From Desulfocapsaceae bacterium (GTDB lineage: Bacteria > Desulfobacterota > Desulfobulbia > Desulfobulbales > Desulfocapsaceae), in assembly GCA_031292275.1 (NCBI GenBank), contig JARLHL010000057.1:1-59607 (forward strand): 59,607 bases of DNA, read 5' to 3'. Below are positions 1 to 48,033 of the stretch, piece after piece; the first letter of the stretch is position 1; each line of letters opens with the position of its first letter. A program made the translations under genes and the position numbers. The notes beneath the pieces were generated by a model that was given only the letters and a program-made list of their open reading frames with translations, had not been told where the DNA came from and searched no databases.

Positions 1-1
1 C

Positions 2-409
2 AAGCATCATTTCAAGGATCAGGCCAATATCTCGATAAAAACGGAGCTGCAGGCGAATCTTCCCCGGATCATGGGCGATGAGTCCCAGCTGAAGCAGGTG
101 ATTATCAACCTCTTCATCAATGCCCTGGATGCCACGGAAAAGGGCGGAGAGATCCGCATCGTCACCCGCTCGGCCCCCGGCAACCGGACCGAGCTCATCG
201 TCAAGGACTCGGGCTGCGGCATCCCCGTCGAGCTGCAGGACAAGATTTTCGAACCCTTCTATACCACCAAGTCGGTGGGACGGGGGATCGGTGTCGGTCT
301 GTCCACCTGCTATTCCATTGTCAGCAATCATCACGGAGAGATCACGGTCACCAGCAACAAGGGGAAGGGCGCGTCGTTTACGGTCTCGCTTCCCGGAATG
401 GAACTCTAA
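2..409 (+). CDS. Sensor histidine kinase, C-terminal fragment (HATPase_c); the 5' end lies outside the window
   Basis: The frame is open from nt 2. Translation ELQANLPRIMGDESQLKQVIINLFINALDA...DSGCGIP...GRGIGVGLS carries the N, G1 and G2 boxes of a histidine-kinase ATPase. The stop overlaps the start of the downstream response regulator (TAATGG). Confidence 0.85.
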   Translation, partial: KHHFKDQANISIKTELQANLPRIMGDESQLKQVIINLFINALDATEKGGEIRIVTRSAPGNRTELIVKDSGCGIPVELQDKIFEPFYTTKSVGRGIGVGLSTCYSIVSNHHGEITVTSNKGKGASFTVSLPGMEL

Positions 410-1746: not shown

Positions 1747-2021
1747 GCGTCGACCCGCCGGTCAGAGCAGAGGCCCCTTCCCTCTTGAAGCAGGCGGCAC
1801 TCCCCCGTATCCCCGTCCCAGTCCGGCACTTCCATCTGATACATTTCCTCTTGACGTGCCGGCTTTTTCCGTTTAACATATCAATGTATATTTATATGCT
1901 GTTTTATTTATACCGACAGGGAAATACGCCTGCGGGTGCCTGTCCGCAGGAAGCGACGAAGGCGAGGAACTTCCTTTTGACTTGGAAGGCATCAGCTCTG
2001 ACGCTTGCAGGGAGATTGTCT

Positions 2022-2423
2022 ATGGAGAAACTGCTCAGGGGAAAACTTGTACGAAAGGCCGATATCGCCGTGAAGAGCAGAAAGCCCGCTCCAGCTGCAG
2101 ATGAGAAGGAAACGGCATTGGCAGACAGGCAATGCCATCCGGTCGCCTTTCTGGCCAAAAGCCTGGCGGATGAGAACCGGCTTCGGATTATTCTTTGCGT
2201 CAGCAACGGCAAGACATCCGTATCGGGCATTGTTGAAGAGCTCGGTCTCTCCCAGCCTTTAGTTTCCCATCACCTGAAGGAACTGAAGCGTTCTCTCCTG
2301 GTCAAAATTGAACGCAGCGGCCCTTTTATCTATTATGAACTGGTCGACCCCCGAATCCTCGATGTCATTCGAACATTGAGCGCCGTGGCAACAGACCTGC
2401 TGACCGCAAGGGAAACCTTTTAA
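2022..2423 (+). CDS. ArsR/SmtB-family transcriptional regulator
   Basis: ADENRLRIILCV...VSGIVEELGLSQPLVSHHLKELKRSLLV is the ArsR-type wHTH signature. The ATG at 2022 is preceded by GGAG at a 7-nt spacing. The longer ORF-track start at 1785 runs through an AT-rich, non-coding-looking leader. Confidence 0.8.
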   Translation: MEKLLRGKLVRKADIAVKSRKPAPAADEKETALADRQCHPVAFLAKSLADENRLRIILCVSNGKTSVSGIVEELGLSQPLVSHHLKELKRSLLVKIERSGPFIYYELVDPRILDVIRTLSAVATDLLTARETF

Positions 2424-2445
2424 GGATGGGGAGGTGAACATCCAT

Positions 2446-2901
2446 ATGAATGCACTGCTGAAAATCATTGACGGCATGGACCCGCAAGAAGCGGTCGACG
2501 AAATGGCCGCGGCCCTGAAAGGGCTTTTCTCCAGCTTGGGCGAAGAGGCGCGCTCACGGTTTCTCTGGAACCTGATGGGGGAATCCGGAGGGGATAAGGT
2601 ATCGAGCCTTGTCCATCTCAGACTGGCCGAATGCATGGGCGAAGGTGTCGACCCGACGCAGATGTGCCAGAGGCTGGTAGATAAGGTCGCTCAGTCCAAA
2701 CAGCTGATGGCGATAACCGACCCGGACCTGCTGGTGCTGTTCGAAGACTGGTTCGAAGAGCTGAAAGAGGAGCTCAGTGTGCTTGTCAAGAGGCACGGGC
2801 CGCTTAATCCGCCTGAGCTTGCAGACAAGCTCGGACTCTCGGTGCGGGGGGCGAAGTTTCTCCTGTCGAAGTTCGAGCGTGAGCAAAAAAAGAGAATGTA
2901 A
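2446..2901 (+). CDS. Hypothetical acidic protein of the redox cluster; the C-terminus may form a small HTH
   Basis: ORF immediately downstream of arsR. GGGGAGG lies 11 nt upstream of ATG 2446; an alternative GTG start sits at 2434. No family was recognised from the sequence. Confidence 0.5.
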   Translation: MNALLKIIDGMDPQEAVDEMAAALKGLFSSLGEEARSRFLWNLMGESGGDKVSSLVHLRLAECMGEGVDPTQMCQRLVDKVAQSKQLMAITDPDLLVLFEDWFEELKEELSVLVKRHGPLNPPELADKLGLSVRGAKFLLSKFEREQKKRM

Positions 2902-2928
2902 ACGGTACCTTCTTCAAAGAGGTCTTTT

Positions 2929-3288
2929 ATGCGGAATATACAATCGGCCCTCGTGGCCCTTGCGGCAGTGCTGCTGACGGTTGGAAGCCTCTGGCTGACC
3001 CATCGCACACTCCCCCCGGTCCAGGCGACATGGAACGATGTTCTGGACGAGTGGGAAAAAGGCGGCTACAGAATCGTGACCACCGAGGAACTTGCCGATC
3101 GTTATCAAAAGGATGCCGGAGGCCTGATCCTGGTCGATACCCACCAGGAATGGGAATACCGGACCGGGCATCTCAAAGGCGCCGTGAATTTTCCGATGGA
3201 GCCGACCGCATGGTCGAGATGGTGCAAGGCACCGGCCCTCGGCGCCTTGCTGGGTCCCGACAAGGACCGCTCCATCGTCTTCTACTGA
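2929..3288 (+). CDS. Rhodanese-domain protein with an N-terminal signal anchor, as conventionally called. It ends at a UGA exactly where the catalytic Cys is expected; see the selenoprotein finding
   Basis: RBS AAAGAGG 7 nt upstream. Signal/TM segment MRNIQSALVALAAVLLTVGSLWL. The rhodanese motifs LILVDTHQEWEYRTGHLKGAVNFP...DKDRSIVFY are followed by TGA at the canonical IVxYC position. Confidence 0.6.
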   Translation: MRNIQSALVALAAVLLTVGSLWLTHRTLPPVQATWNDVLDEWEKGGYRIVTTEELADRYQKDAGGLILVDTHQEWEYRTGHLKGAVNFPMEPTAWSRWCKAPALGALLGPDKDRSIVFY

Positions 3289-3327
3289 GCGGGGCTCACA
3301 TGAGTCCGAAGCGACTCGGCGGCCCGT

Positions 3328-4701
3328 GTGGCCGTAAAACTCGGCTATAAAAATGTCTCTCGCGACCCCTACGGCTACCCGGAATGGCAGGGAAGAGGCC
3401 TGCCCGTCGAGAGTGCCCCCGCAGGACTGGCTGCACAGACGCAGGAAGGGCCCAAAGCGCCGGGACCGCTGTCCGGCTGGGCGATGATATGGACCCTTCT
3501 GGGAATATTTGCAGGCGGCATGGCCCTCAATCTCACCCCCTGCGTCTATCCGTTGATCCCCATCACAGTCTCCTACTTTGGCGGTCAGGCCACGAAGCAG
3601 GGAGAGGGACGGGGAAGGCTGCTGTTGCACGGTCAGTGCTATATGCTGGGTCTTGCCTTAACCAACTCGCTGCTGGGAGTGGCTGCGTCCCTGACCGGCG
3701 GGCTGATGGGGGGCTTGCTCCAGAACCCCCTGGTTCTTGCGGTCGTGGCCGCGGTCCTTATCTTCTTTGCCGCCAGCCTCTTCGGCTTGTGGGAGATGCG
3801 TCTGCCGAGTGGCCTGACCCAGGCCGCTGCAAAATCCTATACCGGTTACTTCGGCAGCCTCTTCATGGGGCTGACCCTCGGGGTGGTTGCGGCCCCCTGC
3901 ATTGGACCTTTTGTGCTGGGCCTCCTCACCTGGGTTGCAGGCATGGGCAGCCCCTGGCTCGGATTCGTTATCTTTTTTACCCTGAGCCTGGGCCTCGGCC
4001 TGCCGCTCTTCCTTCTTGCCATGTTCTCGGGACAACTGCAAAAGCTTCCCCGTTCAGGGGACTGGATGATCTGGGTGAGAAAACTGATGGGCTGGGTCCT
4101 GGTCGGCATGGCCGCTCATTTCATCCGGCCCCTTCTCCCCGGTTCGGGGGGAACCATCGTGGTTGCCCTGGTCGCCTTGTCCGCCGGGCTTCATCTGGGC
4201 TGGATTGACAGCAGTCGGGCAAACTTCCGAGCCTTTCCCTGGCTGAAGACAGGCGCCGGCACCGCCTGTCTTGTCCTGGCCGCCTTTCTCTTGACATCAC
4301 GGGCAATGCAGGGGCCGGGGGTTAGGTGGAGACCCTATACAGAGGAAACCCTGCAGAAGGCCTGGGACCAGAAAAAGCCTGTCATTATCGATTTCTATGC
4401 CACCTGGTGCACGCCGTGCCGGGAACTTGACGAAGTCACCTTTCATAATGCCGCGGTCGTCAGCCAGGCAGAGCGTGATTTTATCATGGTGAAAGTGGAT
4501 GTAACCAGGGCGGGCAACCCCCTGAACGAACGATTACTGCAGCAGTATGGAATCAAGGGCGTTCCGACCATCGTCTTTCTTGATACGAACGGGGAAGAAC
4601 GGCAGGACCTGCGTCTGGTGGATTATCTCCCCCCCGACCGGTTCCTGAAACAGATGGCCGGAGTCGGAAAGAGCAGGATAAACGACGGAAAGGCGCAATA
4701 A
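3328..4701 (+). CDS. CcdA/DsbD-type transmembrane thiol:disulfide transporter fused to a C-terminal thioredoxin domain. As called it starts inside the rhodanese C-terminal homology region; the real product is probably a rhodanese-CcdA-Trx fusion
   Basis: CcdA/DsbD beta-domain cysteines in TM segments (LNLTPCVYPLIP; AAPCIGPFV). C-terminal Trx with WCTPC (IIDFYATWCTPCREL). The first about 30 codons (VAVKLGYKNVSRDPYGYPEWQGRGLPVE) are a classic rhodanese C-terminus in the same frame as the upstream rhodanese ORF. Confidence 0.7.
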   Translation: MAVKLGYKNVSRDPYGYPEWQGRGLPVESAPAGLAAQTQEGPKAPGPLSGWAMIWTLLGIFAGGMALNLTPCVYPLIPITVSYFGGQATKQGEGRGRLLLHGQCYMLGLALTNSLLGVAASLTGGLMGGLLQNPLVLAVVAAVLIFFAASLFGLWEMRLPSGLTQAAAKSYTGYFGSLFMGLTLGVVAAPCIGPFVLGLLTWVAGMGSPWLGFVIFFTLSLGLGLPLFLLAMFSGQLQKLPRSGDWMIWVRKLMGWVLVGMAAHFIRPLLPGSGGTIVVALVALSAGLHLGWIDSSRANFRAFPWLKTGAGTACLVLAAFLLTSRAMQGPGVRWRPYTEETLQKAWDQKKPVIIDFYATWCTPCRELDEVTFHNAAVVSQAERDFIMVKVDVTRAGNPLNERLLQQYGIKGVPTIVFLDTNGEERQDLRLVDYLPPDRFLKQMAGVGKSRINDGKAQ

Positions 4702-4760
4702 GGAGTAAAGATATGGCGAAGGTGAGATTTTTCCTCAACTTGCCCAACGGCAGGCCATGA

Positions 4761-5033
4761 ATGAATTTTCAGGAGATGATGCCCAGGCTGGGCATGAAGT
4801 ATAAGGGTATCGAGATCGAGGTAATGGCAAAACCCGTTGCAAATTACCAGAATGATGACTATTTCGCCCTGGATCTTCCGGTGGCGCCGGCGATTATGGT
4901 CGGAGAGGAGATTGTGATCGAAGGCGCGAATATCAGCCAGGATAAGGTGGAAAAGGTCATCTGCCGGCACCTGGGGTTACCCGAGCCGGAACCTAAAAAG
5001 AGGGGGATATTGGACTGTCTTTTCGGGCAATGA
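4761..5033 (+). CDS. Small thioredoxin-fold protein, C-terminal half similar to redox-active disulfide protein 2; a possible N-terminal extension begins at ATG 4713 and reads through UGA 4758
   Basis: VAPAIMVGEEIVIEGANISQDKVEKVICRHL resembles the C-terminal beta-alpha of small Trx-fold proteins. AGGAG lies 7 nt upstream of the in-frame ATG at 4713, and the RBS is weak at 4761. Confidence 0.45.
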   Translation: MNFQEMMPRLGMKYKGIEIEVMAKPVANYQNDDYFALDLPVAPAIMVGEEIVIEGANISQDKVEKVICRHLGLPEPEPKKRGILDCLFGQ

Positions 5034-5195
5034 GACGAACGCAATCCTTGTAATCCGTTCAACGGTCGTATAAACCTGATCTCATGCAATGCAGCCTCCT
5101 GCCTCGATCGTGGTCTGCCGGGATAAAAGACGGTTGACGGGCGCCCGGAAAGAGGGGAGCCGCTGATCAAAAGAGGAATAACCCGAGGTGCCTTT

Positions 5196-5894
5196 ATGAA
5201 ATCAGAGACGGACCGCAAAGGGCCTGCAGTCAAAGCGGCCATCTTCATTGTCTTCCTTATCGCGGCAATCGTGCTTGTTCGCTTCACCCCGCTAAAGGAG
5301 TATTTGACCGCCGACAAATTGGGGAGTCTCCTGAAGGCTGCGGGACCGTGGACGCCTGCGGCCTACATCGGCCTCTATGCGGCAGGGGTCTGCCTCTTTC
5401 TGCCGGGAACTCTCCTGACTGCGGTTGGGGCGGCGGTCTTCGGCCCCTATTTCGGTTTTATCTATGTCTGGCTGGGGGCCATGCTCGGGGCAAGCCTCTC
5501 ATTCTTCATCGGCCGCTATCTGGGGAGGGACTTTGCCGCATCCCTAATCGGAGACCGGCTGAAGAAATACGATGAGGCCATCGGGCGAAACGGTTTTGCC
5601 ACGGTCCTGTACCTGCGCCTGGTCTACTTTCCGTTCACCCCGATGAACTTCGGCATGGGCCTGACTCGGGTGCGTTTTCGGGATTATTTTTCCGGGACGG
5701 CGCTCGGCATCATCGTCGGCACATTTATCTTCACATTCTTCATCGGCACGGTCAAAGAGGTCTGGTCGGACGGACATTGGGCAGGGCTGCTCTCCTGGAA
5801 GGTACTCTTCTCCTTGGGTCTCTTCATTTTTTCCTTCTTTATTCCCGCAATAGTCAAACGGATCAAGGCCGAACGAAAGGCAGAGACTGTTTAG
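5196..5894 (+). CDS. DedA/TVP38/TMEM64-family membrane protein
   Basis: Multiple TM segments plus the family core GxxxFGPYFGFIYVWLGAMLGASLSFFIGRYLGRDF and VYLRLVYFPFTPMNF. Confidence 0.85.
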   Translation: MKSETDRKGPAVKAAIFIVFLIAAIVLVRFTPLKEYLTADKLGSLLKAAGPWTPAAYIGLYAAGVCLFLPGTLLTAVGAAVFGPYFGFIYVWLGAMLGASLSFFIGRYLGRDFAASLIGDRLKKYDEAIGRNGFATVLYLRLVYFPFTPMNFGMGLTRVRFRDYFSGTALGIIVGTFIFTFFIGTVKEVWSDGHWAGLLSWKVLFSLGLFIFSFFIPAIVKRIKAERKAETV

Positions 5895-6104
5895 AGATTT
5901 TGTCCTTCAGGACGGTGCAATCACCAGAGTCGCCCCACTCGAACACAGTTTTGTATTTCTTTCTCATAAAATATTCAGTACAGGAGACAATACGGGATCC
6001 TTGCATTCTGCACGCCTCGTCCGTCCCGGTTTTTTTCTGTCTCTGCGCCTCCCTTTCAGAGTGGAGCGCGCCGTAATTTTTCGAAAAAAATGGAGGAATC
6101 CGAC

Positions 6105-6695
6105 ATGCCCGGCATTTTTGAAGTCTTGGCGGAACGCATCTCATCCGTTACATCCCGGCAGCGGTCTCTGATTTTCAAAATCCTCTCACTCATCGGCGGC
6201 GGGATGATTTTTCTGATGGTTTTTCCTTTTCTCTTAGGGGCCATCAGCAAGACCATACTCGGCGCAATACCGGAGGGAGCTCCCCTTTTTGTTCGATATA
6301 TAATCGGGATTCCCTGCATTGCAGTCGGGCTTGGCATTCTCATCTGGGCCGTCAAGGCATTCTGGTCATCAGGAGGAGGGACCCCTTCCCCGATTGCGGC
6401 TCCGCAGCTGCTGGTGACGACCGGACCATACAGATACTGCAGAAATCCCATACAGCTCGGAGCGATGATTCTGTATTTCGGCATGGGAGCGGTGGCAGAT
6501 TCAATCATCGCGGGGACGGGCATGTGCGGCCTGGCTCTGATCCTTGGCACTCTCTACCACTCTTGTATTGAAGAGAAAGAACTGCAGAGGCGATTTGGAG
6601 AGCAATACCTGCAGTACCGCAAAAGGACTCCCTTCCTCATCCCCCGATTCAACCTCCGTGCGGCGGATAAAGATTCAGCCTCGCCGCAGTGCTGA
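6105..6695 (+). CDS. Isoprenylcysteine carboxyl methyltransferase (ICMT)/phospholipid methyltransferase-family membrane protein
   Basis: TM-rich with the C-terminal motif TTGPYRYCRNPIQLG...EEKELQRRFGEQYLQYRKRTP (ICMT signature GxYxxxRHPxY...EE..L...FG..Y..Y). GGAGG lies 8 nt upstream of ATG 6105; an alternative start is at 6090. Confidence 0.7.
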   Translation: MPGIFEVLAERISSVTSRQRSLIFKILSLIGGGMIFLMVFPFLLGAISKTILGAIPEGAPLFVRYIIGIPCIAVGLGILIWAVKAFWSSGGGTPSPIAAPQLLVTTGPYRYCRNPIQLGAMILYFGMGAVADSIIAGTGMCGLALILGTLYHSCIEEKELQRRFGEQYLQYRKRTPFLIPRFNLRAADKDSASPQC

Positions 6696-6963
6696 GCAGA
6701 AGGCCCCTCTCGATTTTATTTCCTTACCGCTGGTTTTCTCTTTCATTTTCTCCGGCTTGATACCCCGCACAGAGGCATTCTTTTCTCAGTGGCCGGACAT
6801 TGTGGCCAGCATATCTTCCGGTGTCACTCGGTCCGAATCCTGAAATCATACAAATATGAGTAAATACGAAAATATTGTTGTCCTGCATCCATGAAATTTG
6901 CTAGAATCATCCCGTGAATCCTAACTCTTCATTGAAGATATTCAACACATAAAGGTCACTATA

Positions 6964-7488
6964 ATGACAAATAGAAAATACATCTTTTCATGGGACCTTA
7001 TCGGAGATATTGAACTCGGACGCCCTAACCTCGGACCCACTACACGCATTGAAGTATACCGGCTTTTGCAGTATGTCTTTCGGGATGTTCTTGAAAGGCA
7101 TTTCGGCACTGAAATGACCGATACCCTTTTTTTTGAGGCCGGCAAACAGGCAGGCACCGAATTCTTCAAGAAGTTCTGTTCAGAAGTATCCGATCTGAAT
7201 GAATTCGTCACCACCCTGCAGGACCTGCTCAGAGATCTCAGCATCGGTGTCATGCGCGTTGAGGCGGCAGATCTTGAACGCGGCTCCTTCGTTATCACTA
7301 TTTCTGAAGACCTGGATTGTTCAGGGCTGCCGGAACTTGACTACGAAACCTGTGTGTATGACGAGGGATTTATTGCCGGATTAATGGAAAGTTTTACGGG
7401 TAAGGAATTCAAAGTCAAGGAAATTGACTGCTGGTGTACTGGAGACCGGACCTGCCGGTTTACCGCGAACATGGTGGAGCAACGTTGA
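6964..7488 (+). CDS. V4R (4-vinyl reductase) domain protein
   Basis: SWDLIGDIELGRPNLGPTTRIEVYRLLQ is the typical V4R N-terminal signature. A Cys-rich C-terminus is present. The TGA stop overlaps a TTG in the kinase frame (TTGA). Confidence 0.7.
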   Translation: MTNRKYIFSWDLIGDIELGRPNLGPTTRIEVYRLLQYVFRDVLERHFGTEMTDTLFFEAGKQAGTEFFKKFCSEVSDLNEFVTTLQDLLRDLSIGVMRVEAADLERGSFVITISEDLDCSGLPELDYETCVYDEGFIAGLMESFTGKEFKVKEIDCWCTGDRTCRFTANMVEQR

Positions 7489-9884
7489 CTTCCGAAATCA
7501 CATACCTTGCCGATCTGCTTCTCAAGGTCTTGCACAACAGGAAGGCGCCTGAATCCCTCCCCGCAGAATTTTCAGATCAGAAAGAAGTTGCGTCGCTCTT
7601 TAATGAACTCTTACAAATACGCAGTTTCGTCAAAGCAGTGGCAACCGGTGACCTTTCAGGCCAACTTTCCTCTAAGGGCTACACTGCCGGAGTCCTGAAA
7701 GGACTGCAGGCCAGCCTGAAGCACCTGACATGGCAAACACAGATGATCGCTTCAGGGGATTTTAGTCACCGGCTGGATTTCATGGGAGATTTCTCTAAGG
7801 CCTTCAATTCGATGACTACACAGTTGAAAGACTCCTACCGCATCATCAAGGAGAAAGAGACACAACTGAAGGCCATCAACTCCACGCTTACCCAGGATAT
7901 TGCCGAGAGGAACCGGGCCGTGCATGCCCTCCGGCAAAGCGAGGAACGGTATCGTGCATTGGTTGAAAATGCACCGATCGGCATATTCAAAAGATGTCTC
8001 GACGGAGATTTCCTGTACTCAAACCCCAGCCTTGTCAAAACATTCCGCTGTCACGATACCGACGAATTTTTCGCCCGATACGGTACTGTACAGCACCGCT
8101 GGCGGTTCCCGGAAGAACACGAAAAATTAATGGAACTGCTGTTGCGGCAGAAGAGGGTCAACAATTACGAAATGGAATCGCGGCTGGTCGATGGAACCAG
8201 TATCTGGGTAGCGCTTTTCTGTACATTCGACTCCGAAAGCGCAATTATTGACGGATGGGCTATTGACATTACCGATCGCAAACAAGCGGAAAATGATCTC
8301 AGAAACAGTGAAGAGATATTCCGTGGAATGGTGGAGTCGGCTCCCTTCGGCATTATCCTCTCCGTAGGGGAGAAAATTCATAACGAATATGTCAACCCCA
8401 AATTTACCGAACTTTTCGGTTACACCATCAAGGATATCCCCTCCGACAGGGAGTGGTGGCCGCTGGCATATCCGGAAACAGAATACCGGAGACGGACCAA
8501 AGCGGGATGGAACAGGCTGATCGAGAACGCCATACGTACTCAATCAGCCGTGGCACCCACGGAGACAGTGGTCACCTGCAAGGACGGTTCGACGAAAGTT
8601 GTCGAATTCACGTTAATTCCCCTTGGCGAAAAAAATATTATTTTTGTAACGAATCTCTCCGAGCGCAAGCTGGCAGAGGAGGCGCAGGCCAAACTGCAGG
8701 CCCAGTTGACCCATGCGCAAAAGATGGAGTCTGTCGGCAGACTCGCCGGCGGAGTCGCCCATGACTTTAACAATATGCTCGGGGTTATCATCGGCAATAC
8801 GGAGATGGCTCTGGACAAGGTGGACCCGCAGCAGAACATCTATCGCGACCTGCAAGAAGTCCTGAAAGCAGCCAGACGATCAGCCGATCTGACCCGGCAG
8901 CTCCTGACCTTTGCCCGTAAACAGGCCATCACCCCCCGGATTCTTGACCTTAACGAGACTGTGCAGGGGATGCTTACGATGCTGCAGCGCCTTATCGGCG
9001 AGGACATCACCCTTGCCTGGCAGCCTGAAGCAGACCTTTGGCCGGTCGAAATAGACCCGTCGCAGGTCGACCAGATCCTTGCCAATCTCTGTGTCAATTC
9101 CCGTGATGCCATCACAGGGATCGGCAGGGTCATTATAGAAACAGGAATTACGTCCATCGATGAAAAATACAGCGCAGTGGATCCTGACTGTATCCCCGGC
9201 GACTATACATTGCTGGCAGTCAGCGACAACGGCTGCGGTATGAATAAAGAAGTCATGAAAAACCTCTTTGAGCCGTTTTTCACCACCAAAGAAGTCGGCA
9301 AGGGGACCGGACTCGGATTGGCCACAATTTATGGAATTGTAAAACAGAACAATGGCTTTATCAACGTATTCAGCGAGCCGGGCCGGGGATCCGTCTTCAA
9401 AATCTATCTGCCCAGATACACCGGCTGCAGCAGCCAGGCGGAGGATGAAGAATTGGCGAAAATTGCCCCTCGGGGATCTCAGACCATCCTGGTGGTTGAA
9501 GACGAGGCGGCAATTTTGCGAATGACCACCTCGCAGCTTAGACTTCTCGGATATACGGTGCTGTCTGCGTCCACGCCAGGCCAGGCGATCAGGCTGGCAA
9601 CCAAGACCCCCGGCGCAATTGATTTGCTGTTAACCGACGTGGTTATGCCCGAGATGAATGGCCGGGTCCTTGCCGAAAAGCTGTTCTCCATTTATCCAAA
9701 TCTTATATTCCTCTTCATGTCCGGCTATTCACCCGACACTGTAGCGCACTACGGAGTACTGGAGAAAGGCGCAAACTTTCTCCAGAAGCCATTCTCCAGA
9801 AAGGACCTGGAAATCAAGGTGCGACTGGCCCTGGAAAAAGGCAAAACCAGTCCGGACAAAGCACCCTTTGAGATAAGTCATTAA
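7434..9884 (+). CDS. Hybrid sensor histidine kinase (HAMP-like, 2x PAS, HisKA, HATPase_c, C-terminal REC)
   Basis: PAS segments (ERYRALVENAPIGIF; EEIFRGMVESAPFGII), the H-box ESVGRLAGGVAHDFNNML, HATPase [47 protein letters not shown]...LLTDVVMPEMNG. The start is uncertain: ATG 7434 overlaps the V4R gene by 55 nt, and a TTG at 7485 would give a coupled TTGA overlap. Confidence 0.9.
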   Translation: MYWRPDLPVYREHGGATLTSEITYLADLLLKVLHNRKAPESLPAEFSDQKEVASLFNELLQIRSFVKAVATGDLSGQLSSKGYTAGVLKGLQASLKHLTWQTQMIASGDFSHRLDFMGDFSKAFNSMTTQLKDSYRIIKEKETQLKAINSTLTQDIAERNRAVHALRQSEERYRALVENAPIGIFKRCLDGDFLYSNPSLVKTFRCHDTDEFFARYGTVQHRWRFPEEHEKLMELLLRQKRVNNYEMESRLVDGTSIWVALFCTFDSESAIIDGWAIDITDRKQAENDLRNSEEIFRGMVESAPFGIILSVGEKIHNEYVNPKFTELFGYTIKDIPSDREWWPLAYPETEYRRRTKAGWNRLIENAIRTQSAVAPTETVVTCKDGSTKVVEFTLIPLGEKNIIFVTNLSERKLAEEAQAKLQAQLTHAQKMESVGRLAGGVAHDFNNMLGVIIGNTEMALDKVDPQQNIYRDLQEVLKAARRSADLTRQLLTFARKQAITPRILDLNETVQGMLTMLQRLIGEDITLAWQPEADLWPVEIDPSQVDQILANLCVNSRDAITGIGRVIIETGITSIDEKYSAVDPDCIPGDYTLLAVSDNGCGMNKEVMKNLFEPFFTTKEVGKGTGLGLATIYGIVKQNNGFINVFSEPGRGSVFKIYLPRYTGCSSQAEDEELAKIAPRGSQTILVVEDEAAILRMTTSQLRLLGYTVLSASTPGQAIRLATKTPGAIDLLLTDVVMPEMNGRVLAEKLFSIYPNLIFLFMSGYSPDTVAHYGVLEKGANFLQKPFSRKDLEIKVRLALEKGKTSPDKAPFEISH

Positions 9885-9902
9885 GCCCGGCCCGCCTTTT
9901 CT

Positions 9903-9927
9903 CTTGTGGGACAAGACGTTTTTTCTT
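9903..9927. terminator. Putative bidirectional terminator between the convergent kinase and MFS genes
   Basis: Small hairpin CTTGTGGGACAAG followed by TTTTTTCTTT; weak. Confidence 0.3.
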
Positions 9928-9952
9928 TCGGAGAGGTTATGAACTCTACCGT

Positions 9953-11212
9953 TTACACTTCGGGCCGGACCTGTCTTCCGATCGGAGGAGGCCAGGCCAG
10001 AGCGGCAAGGGCAAAGACGCAAAAGACAGCCCCGGCGTAGAATGTGGCCGACGCCCCGAATCTGTCCCACAAAAAACCGGCGACCACGCTTGCCAGCAGC
10101 ATGACGAGGCCGCTGATCAGGTTGAAAAATCCGTAGGCCGTGCCGCGCAGTTCGGCGGGTGCGGCATGGGCGACCATTGCCGCAAGAAGTCCCTGGGTGA
10201 TGCCCAGATGAATGCCCCATATCCCGACCCCGGCCAAAATGACAAGCCAGTGATGGCCGGTGGCGAGCACCAGATCAGCGGCAAGCAGCACGGCGAGCCC
10301 CATGGCCAGGAGTTTGCGGTGACTCATTCGGTCGGAGAGTTTGCCGAAGGGATATGCAGATCCGGCATAGATCAGATTCATAGCCACCATGACAAGCGGC
10401 ACAAAGGCGATGGGCACACCGACCCCCTGGGCACGAAGGACGAGGAAGGCCTCGCTGAAACGCGCCAGGGTGAAGGCTGCTCCAAGCCCGACCACCCACC
10501 AATATGATGCGCTGAGCTGCCGCAGACTCTTGCGGCAGATAGGGTTCAGAGTTCTCCGGCTTTTAACCGGCGATTCCTCACGCAGACCGATGGCGAGCAT
10601 GGCAACCGACGCAAGACCAGGTATAACAGCCACCCAGAATACCGCCCTGAAATCACCGGCCCAGAGCAGCATCAGGATGGTACCAAGTAAGGGGCCCAGA
10701 AAGGCCCCTACCGTATCCAGGGCCTGCCGCAGGCCAAAGGCCGCCCCTCGCAGGGTCGGCGGGGTGATATCGGCGACAAGGGCGTCCCGCGGAGCACCGC
10801 GAACGCCCTTGCCCAGCCGATCCAGAAGCCTTGCAGTCAGCACCAGGCCCATGGTCGGCGCGACGGCAAACAGCGGCTTGGTCAGGGCGCCCAGGGCATA
10901 GCCGAATACGGCAAGTACTTTACGCTTGCCCCAGTAGTCGCTGAGGGCCCCGGAGAATATTTTGACAATCAGGGCGGTGGCCTCCGCCAATCCTTCAACG
11001 AATCCAACCTCAACGGCGGTGGCCCCCAATACGGTGACCATGAACATCGGCAGCAGGCTATGAATCATCTCTGACGAGACGTCCATCAGCATGCTGACAA
11101 GGCCAAGTATCCATACCCCGGCCGGAATCCGCCTTGAGGAGGCTGTCTTGCCACTACTCCCGGCGGCAGGGGCAGCCGTTGCATCATTTTCGGCCATTGC
11201 GGCATTCTTCAT
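9953..11212 (-). CDS. MFS transporter
   Basis: About 12 TM segments; MFS motifs LTARLLDRLGKGVRGAPRDALVAD and repeated GxxxG-rich helices. Confidence 0.9.
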   Translation of the reverse strand: MKNAAMAENDATAAPAAGSSGKTASSRRIPAGVWILGLVSMLMDVSSEMIHSLLPMFMVTVLGATAVEVGFVEGLAEATALIVKIFSGALSDYWGKRKVLAVFGYALGALTKPLFAVAPTMGLVLTARLLDRLGKGVRGAPRDALVADITPPTLRGAAFGLRQALDTVGAFLGPLLGTILMLLWAGDFRAVFWVAVIPGLASVAMLAIGLREESPVKSRRTLNPICRKSLRQLSASYWWVVGLGAAFTLARFSEAFLVLRAQGVGVPIAFVPLVMVAMNLIYAGSAYPFGKLSDRMSHRKLLAMGLAVLLAADLVLATGHHWLVILAGVGIWGIHLGITQGLLAAMVAHAAPAELRGTAYGFFNLISGLVMLLASVVAGFLWDRFGASATFYAGAVFCVFALAALAWPPPIGRQVRPEV

Positions 11213-11359
11213 CGCATCCGCCTATGGCTGATTTGTGGATGTCCGTTCTTATTCATCCTCCCCCCCCGGGACGACAGCCTTTCTCTGACATGTTTTTCGT
11301 GCTTTCTGGGAAAACAATAATGTCCGTGTCCCCCCTTATCCAGAAGAGACGAATAATTT

Positions 11360-11590
11360 TTATCGATCAAGCATACTCTTCAGACCGGGTGGCAGCCACC
11401 ATAATAAAACGGAGGATGGAAGCTTCCCGTCTGACTTATTGGCAAAAATTCCTAATGCATCAGCACTGGCCAGGGCCCGGATGGTTGCCGTATAGGGCTG
11501 CAGGGTTTTTGCTCTCTCAACATCCCGGGTTGCAATGCAGCGCCTATTGATCGCATTCTGAATTTCATATAAATTGCATAAAACATTTTG
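11360..11590 (-). pseudogene. 3' fragment (about 75 codons) of a paralogue of the SPFH-like gene at 38044..39321; a start-less gene remnant
   Basis: About 80% nucleotide identity to 38095..38320. The minus-strand translation ...YEIQNAINRRCIATRDVERAKTLQPYTATIRALASADALGIFANKSDGKLPSSVLLWWLPPGLKSMLDR* parallels the C-terminus of the 38-kb gene. An upstream in-frame stop and no start codon are present. Confidence 0.5.
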
Positions 11591-11737
11591 TGCAAATATC
11601 TAAAGCTGATATATTTGCATTAATTCAAGATGCCCCATGCGCATCATAGAACTTTCCTAAGCATTCTTTCCGGCTTGTTACCGTCGTTTCCGTATCTGCG
11701 TTCCATAAAACTCGAATTCCGGTCTTGGTTCACGCGC

Positions 11738-14700
11738 ATGCCCTATCCCGATACGCCCTCCACGAAGACAAAGACTCGCCATCAGGCCACAAGTCCCGGC
11801 AGCAACCCTGTGAACATCAGGCCATCGGTCCCGGCAACGGTGGGAATAGGCGCGTCCGCCGGCGGCCACGAGGCCCTGGATCATCTTTTCCAGGCCCTTT
11901 CTCCCGACTGCGAACTCTGCTTCGTCGTCGTCATGCATCTGCCTGCAGACGGTCCATCCCTCCTGGCCGAACTCATTGGACACCAGTCCGCGATGCAGGT
12001 ATTGACCGCAGAAAACGAGATGCCGCTGCACCCGAAAACCATCCATGTGGCTCCACCGGGCATGGACCTGACTGTACGTGGCGGCCGGTTTCACCTGCAC
12101 CCTCGTCAGGATCAGGATATGCCGCATCACCCCATAGATATTTTTTTCAAATCACTTGCCGGGGATCTTGGCCAGAATGCCATCGCCGTGGTGCTCTCCG
12201 GCTTCGGCTCCGACGGCAGTCAGGGGGTCAAATGGATCAAAAAGGAGGGCGGGGTCGTCCTGATACAGGATCCGACGACGGCCATCCATCCCTATATGCC
12301 TCAGAACGCCATCGCCGCCGGGGCCGCCGATCTGATCCTGCCGGCGGCAGAGATCGCCGACAGGCTGACCAAGATCTCGAGGGACCATGGAATCCATGCT
12401 CCGCGCGCCTGTCTGAACATCGCCGCTGATGAGGACCTGACCCCCCTCTTCAATCTCCTGAGAGACCGGACCAGCCACGACTTCAGCTCGTACAAGAGGA
12501 ACACCGTGATCCGACGCATAGAACGCCGAATGACGGTCAAGGCCGCCAAAGAATTCAACAACTACCTGGAAGTCCTTGCAGAGGACCCTCAGGAAGCCCA
12601 CGCTCTCTGTCAGGATCTCCTGGTCGGCGTTACAAGTTTCTTCAGGGACCCCGACGCCTTCGACGTCCTCAACCGCGAGATTCTGCCCTCCCTTTTCGCC
12701 AATCGCGACAGGGAAGAGCCCGTGCGTATCTGGCATGCCTGCTGTGCCACCGGTGAAGAGGCCTACTCTGTAGCCATGCTGATTCTCGAGTACTTCGACG
12801 CCCAGGGCCTGCAGGCCAAAGTGCAGATCTTTGCCACCGATCTCGACGAGACCGCAGTCACCCAGGCCAGGGTCGGAATCTATTCCGATGACATCAAGCG
12901 GGAGGTGAGCCAGGAGCGTCTCCAACGCTTCTTTATCCGCAATGAGGGGCGCTGGCAGGTGAATAGCCGGTTAAGGGAGATGATTGTCTTCGCGACCCAT
13001 AATATCATCAAGGACCCGCCTTTCTCGCATCTTAACCTTCTCGTCTGCCGAAACTTTCTCATCTATCTGAATCCGGACATCCAAAGGCTGCTGCTCCCGC
13101 TTTTTCACCAGGTGCTGGTCCCGGGAGGATACCTCTTCCTGGGGTCAGCCGAGACGGTGGGTCTTCACGACGATCTGTTCAGCGCCGTCAACAAGAAGTG
13201 GAAAATCTTCTCGCGGCAGGGGGGGAAAAGCCGGGCCGAGGCTCTCTTTCCCTTCTCGGGCCCGGTCCGCAAGCTGTCCGACATCGAGCGTTCATACAAG
13301 TCCTCAGAGGCCGACGAGGCAAAGACCCTCGCCGCTGCCGAGAAACTTCTCATGGACCGCTATGTCCCCGCCCGCATAATCATCAACGAGAAGAGCGAGG
13401 TCGTTCATGTCTCACAGCGCGCGGGAGCCTATCTGCTGACCCCGGAAGGAAAACCGACCCAGGATCTCCTGAAAATGGCCCGGGAGGAGTTGCGACCTGC
13501 TCTCAGGGCCGCAATCTACAAGGCTTTTACCACCCAGCAGGAGATCGTCTATCGGGGGATACAGGTCATTACCGAAGGCGCGGAGGAGAGTGTCAATGTT
13601 ATCATACTGCCGTTGAAAGACTGCCCGCCGGCCTGCAAGCTGGCCGCAGTGATCATCGAGCCCGCCCCGCCGGCCCTGGTCCGTCCTCTGCCCCGGGATC
13701 AGGAGGACGGTGGCGACGCCGCCAGGAATTCACTGACTCGACAACTCGAGGAACAGCTGCGGGTGACGGGAGAGCAGCTCCGATCCACCAGCGAACAGCT
13801 GGAGACCTCCAACGAGCGGTTTACGCAGGCCAACGAAGAGCTGATGACGGTAAACGAGGAACTGCAGTCCACTAACGAGGAGCTGCAGTCCACCAACGAG
13901 GAACTGGTCACCGTCAACTCAGAGCTGCAGAGAAAGATGGAGGAACTCAACCAAAGCAACAGCGATATGGAGAACCTCTTCGCCAGCTCCGAGATTGCTG
14001 CCATTTTCCTTGATCGCGGCCTGCACATCAAGCGGTTTTCCCCGGCCATGGCGACAATTTTCAACCTGATTCCGGCTGATACCGGTCGGCCCTTCCGGCA
14101 TCTGAACAGCTCCATAGACTGGTCCTTTCTCCCCATCGACACGACAGCGGTTCTCGAGACCCTCACCCCAGTGGAACGGGAGGTCTGCTCAACGGTCGAT
14201 GGACGAACCTTTATTATGCGGGTCCTGCCCTACAAGACCACCGAAGGCATTGTCGACGGCATTGTCGTCACCCTGGTCGATATCAGCCAGCGTAAACAGG
14301 CAGAGAGGGCCCTGTATGCGACTCAGACAGCCCTGCGCGAAGGGGATGAACGGCTGCGGTTTGTGCTGGAAAGCTGCCACATCGGCGCCTGGGACCTTAA
14401 CTTGGATAACCATACCACCTCCCGCTCGCTGGAGCATGACCGCATCTTCGGTTACCCTGAACCGCTGCCTGCCTGGACACTGGAGATGTTCCTCGAACAT
14501 GTCCTGCCGGAGTACCGCCGGGATGTGAAAGAGATGGTCGCAGCGGCCATGGCGGCCAAGCAAGGATGGGCCTGCGAATGCCGCATCCGGCGGGCGGACG
14601 GTCAGATCCGCTGGATCTGGTTTGCGGGCCGCCATCTCACCGACCTGGCCGGTCACAGCCGGGTTGCAGGGATTATTCAAGATATAACCGACCGAAAAGA

Positions 14701-17473
14701 GGCTGAAGAGGAAAATTCCAGATTATTGAAGATCGTCCAGGAGGAGAAAGACAGACTGGCTGTACTGATCAACAGTATCACCGATGAGGTCTGGTTCGCC
14801 GATACCCAGAAGAAATTCACCCTGGCCAATCCTTCAGCCCTCAAGACATTCGGCTTGGAGGTCATGGGCCAGATTGATATTGAGGCCTTTGCCGCCAGTC
14901 TCGATGTGCTCCGCGCCGACGGAAGCCGGCGTCCCGTCCAGGAAGCCCCTCCTCTGCGCGCCCTGCAGGGCGAGGTGGTGAAGAATGCCGAAGAAGTCAT
15001 CCGCAATCCCGTCACCGGCGAACAACGCTATCGGGAGGTCAGCTCCAATTCGGTCAGAGATGCTCAGGGGAGTATCATAGGCGCCGTCACCGTTGTCAGG
15101 GACATCACCGATCGGAAGCGCGCTGAAGAGGCGCTGCGCAAATCCCGATCCAAGCTGGAGGCGGCCCTGTCCAGTATGACCGATGCGGTCTTCATCTCCG
15201 ATCAGGATGGGCAGTTTATCGAGTTCAACGATGCCTTCGCGACCTTTCACCGATTCAAAAACAAAGACGCCTGCCTGAAAAAATTTGCCAGTTACCCTGA
15301 CATTATCGAGGTTTTTATGGCCGACGGGGAACCCGCCCCCGTAGAGATGTGGGCTGTTCCCCGGGCCCTGCGCGGAGAAACCGTCACCAACACGATATAC
15401 GGCCTCCGGCGCAAGGATACCGGCGAAAGATGGGTCGGCAGCTACTCTTTTGCCCCTATCCGTGACAGCAGGGGAGTCATTTCCGGCTCGGTGGTGGTGG
15501 GACGCGATATCACCGAACTTGTGAAAAATGAAGAGGCCCTCAAGACAAGCGAACAGCTGTACCGCTCCCTCTTCGACAATATGCTCAACGGTTTTGCCTA
15601 CTGCAAAATGATCTACGACAATCACGAACCGTCTGACTTCATCTATCTGAACGTCAATGCGGCCTTCGAGGACCTGACCGGCTTGAAGGATGTGGAGAAC
15701 AAAAAGGTCTCGGAGGTTATCCCGGGCATTCGCCAGTCTGACCCTGAACTCTTCGAGATCTACGGCAGGGTCGCTTCGTCCGGTATTCCTGAACGCTTCG
15801 AAACCTTCGTCCAGGCCCTTGACATGTGGTTCTCAATCTCCGTCTACAGCCCGAAGAAGGAATATTTTGTCGCTATTTTTGATGTGATTACAGAGCGTAA
15901 GCGTGCCGAGGAGGCGCTCATCCTCAGCGAGCATCGACGAAGCCTGGCCCTGGAGGCCTCACATGCGGGGACCTGGGAGTGGAATCTCGCGACCAATGAA
16001 AATATCTGGTCCAATGAATTATGGCACCTCTACGGACTCGAACCCTTCAGCTGCAAACCATCCTACGATGAATGGCTGAAGACAATCCATCACGACGATC
16101 AGGCAAAGGTAGAACAGGCCCTCCGGCAGGCGATCGCCCAGGGTACTGCCTTCAATATCGAATGGAGGGTAGCAAAAACCCAGTGCTGGCTGGCTTCCCA
16201 CGGCCGGGCCTTGAGGGACATCCATGATCATATTGTCAGTTATGTGGGCACCGTTATGGATATCACCGAGCGCAAACTGGCCGAGGAGGAGAAAAAATCT
16301 CTGCAGATGCAGCTTATCCAGCTGCAGAAGATGGAGGCAATCGGCACCCTTGCAGGAGGAATAGCTCATGATTTCAACAATATACTTGGAGCTGTCATCG
16401 GCTTTGCCGAGTTGGCAAGGGATTCGATCCCGATGGATTCTGAGGCCGCAAACGATCTCGACAAGGTCCTGGAGGCGGGTGACCGGGCGACCCACCTTGT
16501 CAAACAGATCCTGGCCTTCAGTCGCCAGGCAAATTCTGAAATGGTTCCGCTGGAGCCTGTCCATCTGGTCAAGGAGACCATCAAACTGCTCCGTCCGGCC
16601 CTGCCTTCGACCATCACAATCAAACTGAATCTGGAAGCGGCAACAAAATTTATCCATGCCGATCCCACCCAGATCCACCAGATCGCGATGAATCTCTGCA
16701 CCAACGCCTTCCACGCCATGGAAAAGACCGGCGGCATCCTCGAAATCGGTCTCATGGACTGTCAGGTCTCCTCTCAGGACCTGCCGCCCCACGCCAAGGT
16801 ACAGGCCGGGAAATTCGTTGTACTTTCCGTTGGCGATACTGGACCGGGAATACCGCCGGAGATACAGACCAAGATTTTTGAACCGTATTTCACCACCAAG
16901 GAAGTCGGCAAAGGCACCGGTATGGGCCTCTCCATCATCTACGGCATTGTCACCACCATGGGCGGTTTCATCACCTGCGAGAGCGAACTGAATAAAGGAT
17001 CGATATTCCGCGTATTTTTCCCAGCAATTGAACCAACCCCCGGTATAGCCATCGACCGTAACGATACTATTTCCTCCGGCGAAGAACATATCCTCTTCAT
17101 CGATGACGAGATCATTCTCGCCGAGATGGGCAAAATCATGCTTGAACGCCTAGGCTATACCGTAACACTTCGGACCAGCAGCCTGGAGGCTTTGGAACTC
17201 TTCAAGACCCAGCCGAATCTGTTTGACGCCGTCGTTACCGACCAGACGATGCCCGGCATGACCGGGATGGACATGGCACAGAGGATGCTGGAAATCCGGC
17301 CGGATATACCCATCATACTCTGTACGGGCTACAGCACTCTGGTCAGCGAAGAACAGGCGAAACTCAATGGAATCAAAGAATTTATCATGAAGCCCATGTC
17401 AAAAAAGGATATTGCCCAGCGGCTGAGGAGCGTACTGGATGGCTCCGCTCAGGAGACCACAGCCCCTACATGA
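11738..17473 (+). CDS. Giant chemotaxis-type signalling fusion: CheB methylesterase + CheR methyltransferase + coiled-coil linker + multiple PAS + HisKA/HATPase_c + REC
   Basis: CheB domain ([16 protein letters not shown]...VVMHL), CheR domain ([11 protein letters not shown]...[17 protein letters not shown]), heptad linker [27 protein letters not shown], at least 4 PAS blocks, the H-box [16 protein letters not shown], HATPase [48 protein letters not shown]...[11 protein letters not shown]. The ORF opens at 11630; the start is assigned to the ATG at 11738 (MPYPD...). Confidence 0.9.
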
Positions 17474-17540
17474 AAGGATCAAACAACGGTTTTTCCCCTC
17501 ATCCCCCGGAACTGTGGCCAGGAGTGTCCGTTTTTGCGCC

Positions 17541-17705
17541 CTACCACCGCCGGTATGAGTAGGGATAATAATACGGGCTATAGTAGTACTGTGGTGCAGA
17601 ATAATATGGATGATAATAATACGGTCTGGGATAATCAACCGGCACCACCACGCACCCGCTGCAGACGAGAATCAGCATCGCAGCTATTAACCAACGAAAT
17701 TTCAT
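17541..17705 (-). CDS. Small secreted peptide with an extreme Tyr/Pro-rich C-terminus
   Basis: AAGGAG 8 nt upstream of the ATG; signal peptide MKFRWLIAAMLILVCSGC. The mature region PVDYPRPYYYHPYYSAPQYYYSPYYYPYSYRRW is about 50% Tyr. Confidence 0.45.
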   Translation of the reverse strand: MKFRWLIAAMLILVCSGCVVVPVDYPRPYYYHPYYSAPQYYYSPYYYPYSYRRW

Positions 17706-17877
17706 TTCTCCATCTCCTTGCCCCAAAAAGGCAATTATCGTAAACCCTATCGATGCAGCCCGCCCCCCGGCCTCAGACAAAAGGGACGAACGGGGATGCC
17801 TTCAAACGGATAATAGGGATGCGGTTGATACAGTCAAGAACAAGATCTTTTTTCATTGAGCCCTTTTTGCAAAAACT

Positions 17878-18219
17878 CTAATAATAGTCCTCACGGCCAT
17901 TGCGATTATTGCGCCGATCCCCGTAATGGTCGCGATGGAAGCAGAGCACCTCATCAGGGATCCTTCCCAGGTAGGGATCTCCCCACGGTCCATGCCCGGA
18001 ATGCGACCTGTGCCAATTGCTCCCATCGTGCCGCCACCAAAATCCGCCATAGAAAAATGGTGCTGCTGCGGCAACCGGTTCGGCGACCGGCACCGGGGCA
18101 GACACTGTCACGGCCACCCCCTGAGAGGCACCGCCTGGATCGACGGTCGCTGACAACACGATTGCCGCAACAATGAAAGAACGCCAGAATCTGCCTTTTT
18201 TACACTGTTTTTTGTTCAT
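17878..18219 (-). CDS. Small secreted Trp/His/Gly-rich protein, unknown function
   Basis: Signal peptide MNKKQCKKGRFWRSFIVAAIVLSA. The mature part is ...FFYGGFWWRHDGSNWHRSHSGHGPWGDPY...HRDHYGDRRNNRNGREDYY. It lies on the same strand between the two other small secreted ORFs. Confidence 0.45.
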   Translation of the reverse strand: MNKKQCKKGRFWRSFIVAAIVLSATVDPGGASQGVAVTVSAPVPVAEPVAAAAPFFYGGFWWRHDGSNWHRSHSGHGPWGDPYLGRIPDEVLCFHRDHYGDRRNNRNGREDYY

Positions 18220-18242
18220 TCCAGGCCACCGTCGCAAGGATG

Positions 18243-18575
18243 TTACCGGCCGATCTGACGACTGACGGCGTTCTCCTGCTGATTAAGCGTCCTCTGCTCC
18301 TGCTTGGTAATATGACCGCCGTCCTGGCTTGCCATATCCCGTTCTTCCTGGCGGATCTGCCGATCTTCATGATGAAGCTTTGCAGCCTGCCCCTGCGTCA
18401 AGGCCCCTTCTCTCACCTTATTATTGATACGATTATTCTGATTTTCCAAACGCTCATTCACCTGCACCCGTCGGGGATGATCCTGCGCCCAGTCATCGGC
18501 AAAACTCTCGGTACGGCCGAAGAAAAAGAGGACTGCCGCCAACATTACAACCATCATTGTGAGCTTTTTATTCAT
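18243..18575 (-). CDS. Periplasmic LTXXQ-motif protein (CpxP/Spy/ZraP-like)
   Basis: Signal peptide MNKKLTMMVVMLAAVLFFFG; Gln/Arg/Glu-rich helical protein with an LTQGQ motif (LTXXQ) and a second TLNQQ. Confidence 0.5.
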   Translation of the reverse strand: MNKKLTMMVVMLAAVLFFFGRTESFADDWAQDHPRRVQVNERLENQNNRINNKVREGALTQGQAAKLHHEDRQIRQEERDMASQDGGHITKQEQRTLNQQENAVSRQIGR

Positions 18576-18876
18576 AGTACGCCTTCCCTTCTTGAGAGGT
18601 ATTGATCGGACGTTTGTCTCCTCACCTCGAGGAAACAGCCTTTGTACTCAAGAAGACGGCAAGCATTGCAGTTTTGTCTACAGAGGATGTAAAAAAAGGG
18701 CAGAAATTCGATCGGACGGCCAAAGGCAGGGGATATCGGCAGATCGTAAGCCTGATTCAAGGACTGCGCCCATGCACCCGGACTCCAGATCACCTTGAAT
18801 ATTATGGAATCACCTCGTAAGGCCGCCTGCTTCCACCCCATTTCTCCAAGATGCCCCTCTCCCGCCCGGTCAAGAG

Positions 18877-19680
18877 CTAACAGATCACGTTCCAGAGCAT
18901 CTTGGTGGCAACCACATAGAGAAAGAGTGCGAAAATGCGTTTTAATTTGTCAACCGGCAGCGCGTGGGCCAGTTTGGCCCCGAGCGGTGCCGTAAGGACA
19001 CTGAAACAAACAATAAACAGCATAGCCGGCAGATAGACATACCCCAGGCTGTAGGGAGGCATACTGGCTGCCCCCGGGTTGTTGACTGCATATCCGACTG
19101 CGCCGGCGATGGCTATGGGAAAGCCGATAGCCGCTGAAGTGCCGATGGCCCGGTGGGCCGCCACATTGCACCACATCATGAAAGGAACGGAAAGGGAACC
19201 GCCGCCGATGCCTACCAGGGCCGAGGCCAGACCAATGGTTGACCCGACACCGAACATGCCGATATTGCCTGGTAATTCTCGAGACGCCTTCGCCTTTTTG
19301 TTGAGCAGCATCTGGGTGGCAACAGAATAGAGAAAGACGCAGAAAAAGGCCTTGAGGAAACCGGTGGAAAGCCGTGAGGCGACCATGGTACCCAAAAATG
19401 TACCGATCAGGATGCCGGGAATAAGACGTTTCACGATGGCCCAATCAACCGCGCCGCGCCGATGATGCGACATGAAACTGGAGATTGAGGTGAAAATGAT
19501 ACAGGCAAGGGAAGTCCCCAGGGCCATATGCATAATCAGACCCGAAGGTATCCCCTGTTTGGTAAAACAGAAGATCAGCATTGGTACAATGACCAGACCA
19601 CCTCCCACTCCCAACAGACCGGCGAGCAAGCCGGAAATTAAGCCAACAGCGAAATACATCATAGGAATTTCAAAAGACAT
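18877..19680 (-). CDS. TauE/SafE-family (DUF81) anion exporter
   Basis: Two internally repeated 4-TM halves with the family signatures GLLAGLLGVGGGLVIVPML and GIGGGSLSVPFMM. RBS GAGGG upstream of the ATG at 19680; the ORF track's longer start is at 19704. Confidence 0.85.
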   Translation of the reverse strand: MSFEIPMMYFAVGLISGLLAGLLGVGGGLVIVPMLIFCFTKQGIPSGLIMHMALGTSLACIIFTSISSFMSHHRRGAVDWAIVKRLIPGILIGTFLGTMVASRLSTGFLKAFFCVFLYSVATQMLLNKKAKASRELPGNIGMFGVGSTIGLASALVGIGGGSLSVPFMMWCNVAAHRAIGTSAAIGFPIAIAGAVGYAVNNPGAASMPPYSLGYVYLPAMLFIVCFSVLTAPLGAKLAHALPVDKLKRIFALFLYVVATKMLWNVIC

Positions 19681-20216
19681 CTTACCCTCTATTGTTCGAG
19701 ACACCGTCTTAAACGAGCGCTTGTGATCCTCAAAATGTCAAAAATTATTTTAGCATGTATTGCCCGTAAAGATTGGAAGGACATGCATTGCGACCGCTCC
19801 TGCCCGCTGGCCATTGGTTTTTCACTTACGGGAAAAACCGTTCTGTGAAATTCTATGCAATCTAAACAGTTAGATGACAATTACAGCAGAAATTGTCAAG
19901 ACATTTTTGCAGGCCAGCGGGGGGAATCCCGATCCTTCCGCTGCTCAGGCTCACCGCAGTCGCGAGGAGCAGAAGGGAGGTCAGTCTGAAAACATGCTAT
20001 CTCATATTTTTTCAAATATCAGGGGAAGCGACAGCCCTTCATCCAACAAGAGAAATAAATTTTGTTGGAGTCTTCCTCTCAACCGTGATATCTTTTCTTC
20101 CGGTTAATATGGTCCCTGCTGTTTCTTTTTTTCAGCAAAAAAGGCCGGGGAGGATCTTATGACGTTCAACTCTTTCAAAATATTACATGGAATATATCAG
20201 GGCTGGAGAACATATC

Positions 20217-39321: not shown

Positions 39322-39494
39322 GATTCTTCTCCAATCAAATATTCCCACATTAGATGTTTTATTTCACTACGGTTTATCTTTAATCGGCTATTACTATACA
39401 TACGATAGATTTTCTAAAATTTCCAGTTTTGTTATAAGTACTATTCCTTTCTCGTTGGCTTGATCCTCCCGAAAGAATACGTTGACGGATGCCA

Positions 39495-47813: not shown

Positions 47814-48033
47814 TAATATTTTGCTTGGTTGAGGAGAATAGACAGGTTCTGTTAACCGTCCTTTCTCCTGCCAAATATCATTACCTTTTGACAGTGATTA
47901 TACGCATGATCACATAAAGATGGGGTCAATAATGAAGCAAAGAGCGTCAAGATATCGTCAAAATATGAACATTTTTTCAAGGAGGAAGTGACGCGTTTCC
48001 AAAAGCGTCGCCGAGGGGAGTTCGAGCCCCTCT

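Follow-up and report, generated by a model that had tools for sequence, protein, structure and literature searches.

Genes for SPFH/Band 7 proteins (PF01145), examples of which are HflK/HflC, YqiK and the flotillin-like proteins, usually have an NfeD partner as their neighbour. We analysed a stretch of 59,607 nucleotides, referred to here as the window, in which an intact gene of this family lies at 38 kb. The encoded protein passes the Band_7 gathering score and carries N-terminal hydrophobic segments, like membrane-anchored SPFH proteins. A piece of a similar sequence recurs between an MFS transporter gene and a CheB/CheR gene of the same window. It spans the end of the Band_7 match together with the conserved C-terminal extension and, unlike the SPFH/Band 7 proteins, cannot by itself form an SPFH domain. 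Truncated bacterial pseudogenes are a well-known kind of feature, and an addition to their number is ordinary biology that alters no general concept. We consider it probable, on the evidence of sequence comparison, that the 185-bp block described below is a truncated, non-functional pseudogene derived from a second SPFH/Band 7 gene, which formerly preceded the MFS gene directly and in the same orientation.

Results

Extent and reality of the repeat block

The intact gene, the block and the open frame around it are located as follows.

38044 to 39321, minus strand: intact resident SPFH/Band 7 gene, 425 aa (Pfam Band_7 PF01145, E=6.6e-8, above the gathering score)
11384 to 11568, minus strand: putative SPFH gene remnant corresponding to codons 342-403 of the 425-aa gene and sharply bounded at either end
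11360 to 11602, minus strand: stop-to-stop open frame enclosing the remnant (TAG at 11600-11602, 79 codons, TAA at 11360-11362)

The resident ORF spans 38044-39348 on the minus strand, and the ATG at 39321 is its likely start. A search of the protein collection with the resident SPFH protein gave 791 homologues of about 400-430 aa; no NCBIfam model and no PDB sequence relative were found for this roughly 425-aa subfamily. The intact subfamily is uncharacterised, which is a matter separate from the relic.

Comparison of the 59.6-kb window with itself by BLASTN returned four repeat pairs in total. One of them joins 11384-11568 to 38113-38297, the counterpart of the remnant within the resident gene, on the same strand and without gaps over 185 bp, with 151 of the 185 positions identical (81.6%, E=6e-48). 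Searched against the whole window, the segment 11201-11700 had this single non-self match. The original prediction had described, from an alignment by eye, a duplicated SPFH-like segment upstream of the MFS gene and had proposed a self-comparison as the check; the pair was recovered in this way as two copies with edges at 11384 and 11568, and the E-value places the identity far above chance. Its length, however, had been given as about 230 bp. Local alignment of the flanks revealed that the similarity of 11360-11383 and of 11569-11590 to the SPFH gene was no better than that of shuffled sequences, and the homologous block is therefore 185 bp long. A perfect run of 22 nt shared by block and resident gene lies at 11427-11448. 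Four independent Logan assemblies (L001-L004) of this strain contain an identical block, which excludes an assembly artefact.

Reading frame and truncation

Residues 342-403 of the 425-aa protein (38044-39321) are matched in register by the minus-strand translation of the block, so that the preserved frame and the peptide of the original prediction (...YEIQNAINRRCIATRDVERAKTLQPYTATIRALASADALGIFANKSDGKLPSSVLLWWLPPGL...) were recovered. Fifty-one of the 62 residues are identical to the resident protein, and all columns that are invariant across 14 aligned sequences are retained. The open frame proper covers 11363-11599 (79 codons). Its sole in-frame ATG, GTG or TTG is the ATG at 11372-11374, four codons ahead of the stop codon, and a usable start is absent; an upstream stop and the lack of a start had been predicted correctly. 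Tested as a small protein-coding gene, the block yielded no in-frame canonical start with an ORF spanning it. The other intergenic ORFs (138 aa on the plus strand; 47 and 53 aa on the minus strand) overlap real genes, or the relic out of frame, and were judged by eye to be non-genic.

The final 22 codons and the stop codon of the intact gene have no counterpart beside the remnant. The piece is therefore not the true 3' end of the gene but is truncated at both ends, and its earlier designation as a 3' fragment was not exact. Two properties expected of a pseudogene are thus present: similarity to an intact gene exists at the level of both nucleotides and in-frame protein, and the full product cannot be encoded, as only codons 342-403 of 425 remain, behind an upstream TAG and without a start.

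Selective constraint

The fragment differs from the resident gene at 8, 5 and 22 sites in codon positions 1, 2 and 3, respectively. This bias towards the third position indicates that much of the divergence was built up under coding constraint. By parsimony, 14 changes fall on the branch of the fragment, nine of them nonsynonymous and five synonymous, in contrast to four nonsynonymous and 14 synonymous changes in the intact lineages (Fisher p=0.03, a statistic that is weak with 62 codons only). The changes on the fragment branch do not depart significantly from neutral expectation (binomial p=0.24), from which the intact lineages are far off (p=3e-6). Replacements in the fragment (Y352C, Q356R, Q372R, R381G and S396L) affect positions that hardly vary across the family, and all outgroups are more distant from the fragment than from the resident gene. 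Within the small sample of 62 codons, constraint on the fragment is thus relaxed in comparison with its intact relatives, and its substitution pattern is the one expected after loss of coding constraint.

Age of the split

For a dating relative to the divergence of the intact genes, the same 186-nt block was taken from L005/L088 (P0001, an orthologue from another organism that matches the resident gene at 95% aa and 91% nt identity), from L087 (P0004, 80% aa identical), from L086 (P0002, 83% aa identical) and from three more distant homologues (L093, L094 and L097). Over the 186 nt, the resident gene and L005 differ at 11 sites, and the fragment differs from the two at 35 and 36 sites, respectively. 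The corresponding numbers are 43 for the resident gene and 52 for the fragment in comparison with L087, and 50 and 52 in comparison with L086. Quartet site counts pair the resident gene with L005 and place the fragment outside (11:4:2 and 7:2:1), a pattern by which a recent duplicate of the resident gene is ruled out. At several sites the fragment has one state in common with L086 and the distant outgroups, while the resident gene, L005 and L087 have another; upon inclusion of the three more distant outgroups, the fragment was found to be ancestral where the resident gene, L005 and L087 share derived states. This distribution of states shows that the lineage of the fragment separated before the resident gene and L087 split. 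The remnant thus represents an anciently split lineage and not a recent copy of the 38-kb gene. Site counts for its placement relative to L086 and L087 are tied at 6:6:2, and the fragment was not grouped with the SPFH gene of L086 over the 186 nt, which weighs against our account of the relic.

Neighbouring genes and the intergenic region

The block is enclosed by the following features.

9953 to 11212, minus strand: MFS transporter gene, on the same strand as the remnant and immediately downstream of it (Pfam MFS_1, E=4e-42)
11213 to 11383, no strand: spacer between the remnant and the MFS start, 171 bp, with a C8 run at 11260-11267
11738 to 17473, plus strand: CheB/CheR-PAS-histidine kinase-receiver gene (Pfam domains; NCBI protein P0123, 1911 aa, 100% identical)

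The longest ORF of the CheB/CheR gene begins at 11630 and the NCBI protein at 11738, which leaves 61 bp or 169 bp, respectively, to the remnant. The gap between the divergent MFS and CheB/CheR genes is 417-525 bp, of which the remnant occupies 185, and the location in this divergent intergenic region had been stated correctly. At its 5' breakpoint the remnant adjoins the upstream region of the CheB/CheR gene. The nearest homologues of this gene (66-67% identical) share no synteny with the locus, and the partner at the 5' breakpoint is not traceable through them.

Two further observations concern this region. The C8 run, 48-55 bp ahead of the MFS start, appears as C10 in the four Logan assemblies of the same strain; as the sole difference in the intergenic region, it could represent true length variation or a sequencing or assembly error. 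Directly past the 5' breakpoint of the relic, at 11574-11595, we noticed a near-perfect 10-bp inverted repeat, TTGCATAAAA-CA-TTTTGTGCAA (seen by eye and checked by script). With a third TTGCA at 11615, it is a possible operator ahead of the CheB/CheR gene.

The SPFH-MFS pairing in a relative

In the JGI metagenome contig L086, an intact SPFH gene (2064-3341) and, 363 bp downstream of it, an MFS gene (3705-4997) share one strand. While SPFH genes are usually found beside an NfeD partner, the SPFH gene of L086, whose product is the 83% identical homologue mentioned above, adjoins a transporter gene. The MFS proteins of L086 and the window are 76.6% identical in amino acids (77% in nucleotides). 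In a neighbour-joining tree of 82 sequences, namely the window, L086 and 80 GTDB loci, they are sisters and mutually nearest (77%), and any other sequence reaches at most 73.5%. The 80 loci were kept from a GTDB scan with the MFS protein and belong mostly to Proteobacteria (66-78% identity); no SPFH gene was present in the flanks of any of them, the source species not being among these loci. A window-type MFS gene was absent from five other SPFH contexts (38 kb of the window, L088, L093, L094 and L097). The pairing is rare otherwise, being absent from 80 other MFS loci and four SPFH loci of other organisms, and its occurrence in L086 may hint at a functional link between the roughly 425-aa SPFH subfamily and the transporter. 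The MFS protein encoded at 9953-11212 shares 66-78% identity with those of many Beta- and Gammaproteobacteria as well as of Geobacter, Anaeromyxobacter and others, which is unusually high for such distant taxa and points to horizontal spread or to strong conservation.

In one relative, L086, the gene at the syntenic position is intact, and from this contig the ancestral state at the MFS locus would be read; a relative with an MFS locus at >90% identity was not recovered. The distance from the equivalent point to the MFS start is 433 bp in L086 versus 171 bp in the window, and the two spacers are not alignable. Residual homology past both edges of the block and in the MFS spacer was sought, and none was found. 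The GC3 value of the fragment is 0.50, close to that of the resident SPFH gene (0.48), while the MFS gene, the CheB/CheR gene and the SPFH gene of L086 have values of 0.69, 0.70 and 0.70, respectively. This composition is unexplained by a simple long co-residence of the fragment with the MFS gene, and we count it against our account of the relic.

A metagenome scan with the fragment peptide gave five loci, all of them full-length SPFH genes of the resident type or more distant, or contig-end pieces. None of the five was nearer to the fragment than the resident gene is, and none had an MFS neighbour. When proteins were searched with the 69-aa peptide of the fragment, the only matches were two short pieces of ordinary SPFH genes at contig ends, an uninformative result.

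Composition and other features of the window

The GC content is mostly about 50-62% in the left 20 kb (1-20000), the genes of which have GC3 values of 0.6-0.7. From 20001 to 59607 it is mostly about 38-51%, except for 55-57% at 43-47 kb, and the SPFH, P460 and MCP genes in this right part have GC3 values of 0.45-0.49. Given this shift in composition, part of the contig may be foreign in origin. On the minus strand at 49010-49146, a c-di-AMP (ydaO-type) riboswitch was predicted (93.8 bits, E=7e-21) upstream of an SLT-domain lytic transglycosylase gene (48034-48702, minus strand). The unit of riboswitch and transglycosylase gene is bracketed by a 71-bp inverted repeat (47898-47968 and 49300-49370) with arms that are 83% identical. 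Finally, the ORF at 22723-24420 on the plus strand (565 aa, with a weak, sub-threshold FlgD_ig-like Pfam match only) contains at 23452-24244 a segment of ~339 bp that is duplicated in tandem (456 bp aligned, 75% identity).

Discussion

The reading of the block as a decayed paralogue, one of two offered by the original prediction, is supported by the missing start, the truncation at both ends, the relaxed substitution pattern and, in L086, the intact SPFH gene that precedes the sister MFS gene. Ancestrally, a second SPFH gene would have preceded the MFS gene directly and in the same orientation, the arrangement seen in L086. A rearrangement or deletion may then have taken the first 341 codons and fused the rest to the upstream region of the CheB/CheR gene (breakpoint at 11568/11569), and in another event the last 22 codons would have been lost along with part of the spacer (breakpoint near 11384). 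The remaining 185 bp would have drifted thereafter without coding constraint. We infer the order and mechanism of these deletions. Because of the uneven GC3 values, two scenarios are conceivable. The SPFH gene may have decayed in place, or a donor with the SPFH-MFS pair may have supplied the MFS gene along with an SPFH gene that was by then incomplete; the block would be a relic in either case. That the genome holds similar sequence twice would be due to the gene at 38 kb, a second and anciently diverged SPFH gene that was retained.

The similarity of the fragment to the resident gene in GC3, which separates it from its neighbours, would also be expected if a 185-bp piece of the 38-kb SPFH gene had been pasted between the MFS and CheB/CheR genes, where a full gene would never have existed. 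Filler DNA at the junction of a break or rearrangement, or illegitimate recombination, could have produced such a partial copy, and both the sharp edges on either side of the block and the fact that the fragment branch, taken alone, fits neutral evolution throughout are in line with this explanation. We nevertheless regard it as unlikely. Since the fragment falls outside a group formed by the resident gene, L005 and L087, the copying would have had to happen before the separation of lineages now ~20% apart in protein, and the SPFH-MFS pair of L086 with its sister MFS gene would be left as a coincidence. As to the second reading of the original prediction, by which the 3' end of the gene travels with a mobile or recombining unit (a repeat or element spreading in the genome), we found it unsupported and consider it highly improbable. 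Its sole support is the occurrence of the sequence twice in one contig. Instead of several copies with conserved ends, however, the 59.6-kb contig holds only two copies, old and 18% different from each other. The flanks of the block and of the unit formed by MFS gene and block contained no meaningful inverted or direct repeats, the former of which the original prediction had suggested looking for. Neither terminal repeats or target-site duplications nor a nearby transposase or integrase were seen, the domains of the latter two being absent from the scanned neighbours (MFS, CheB/CheR, histidine kinase, V4R, PEMT and TauE). The plasmid and phage collections gave no match to the block, and the metagenome scan places the motif solely within full-length SPFH genes or contig-end pieces.

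A use of the relic by the cell deserves consideration on account of its position, as it takes up 185 of the 417-525 bp that separate two divergent genes, and on account of its frame, which is still free of indels and stops. It might serve the MFS or CheB/CheR gene as promoter or leader DNA, use a non-canonical start for a small C-terminal SPFH peptide, or give rise to an RNA complementary to the SPFH mRNA, for which the perfect match of 22 nt to the resident gene (11427-11448) could be of relevance. If the relic were transcribed on the plus strand as a leader of the CheB/CheR gene, 185 nt of the RNA would match the 3' end of the resident SPFH mRNA with 82% complementarity, the perfect 22-nt run among them. 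We judge a co-opted element of any of these types to be quite unlikely, and it is very unlikely in particular that the relic acts as a pseudogene-derived antisense regulator or as promoter or operator DNA for the MFS gene. A canonical start is absent, and the substitutions strike residues that are near-invariant in the family; an open frame of 79 codons and the lack of an indel in 185 bp are unremarkable at such a divergence. A sigma-70-like promoter consensus was found on neither strand, the scan for a terminator consensus was also negative, and Rfam gave no match in 11150-11800 apart from a single one at chance level (E=0.7). Of the conserved block in the divergent promoter region that had been proposed earlier, the location holds, and no evidence of a regulatory role came from the Rfam and promoter-consensus scans.

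The interpretation of the block as the remains of a second SPFH gene is of importance mainly for annotation and for the history of the locus. It should be flagged as an SPFH pseudogene fragment and not as a repeat or regulatory element. It probably records a former SPFH gene ahead of the MFS gene, in a pairing that is still whole in one relative.

In comparison with gene-end repeats borne by insertion sequences or MITEs, the remnant is likewise a coding piece at a second, intergenic place. It differs from them by the lack of terminal inverted repeats, target-site duplications and a transposase, and by its occurrence in two old copies that have diverged by 18%. A closer correspondence exists to truncated bacterial pseudogenes. 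As in these, the remnant is homologous in frame, has no start and has lost most of the coding sequence, and it likewise exhibits an excess of nonsynonymous changes at conserved residues and has an intact syntenic counterpart in a relative. In contrast to a typical truncated pseudogene it is unusually clean, with no indel or internal stop in 185 bp, and its SPFH lineage has long diverged from the copy still present in the genome; nothing essential differs.
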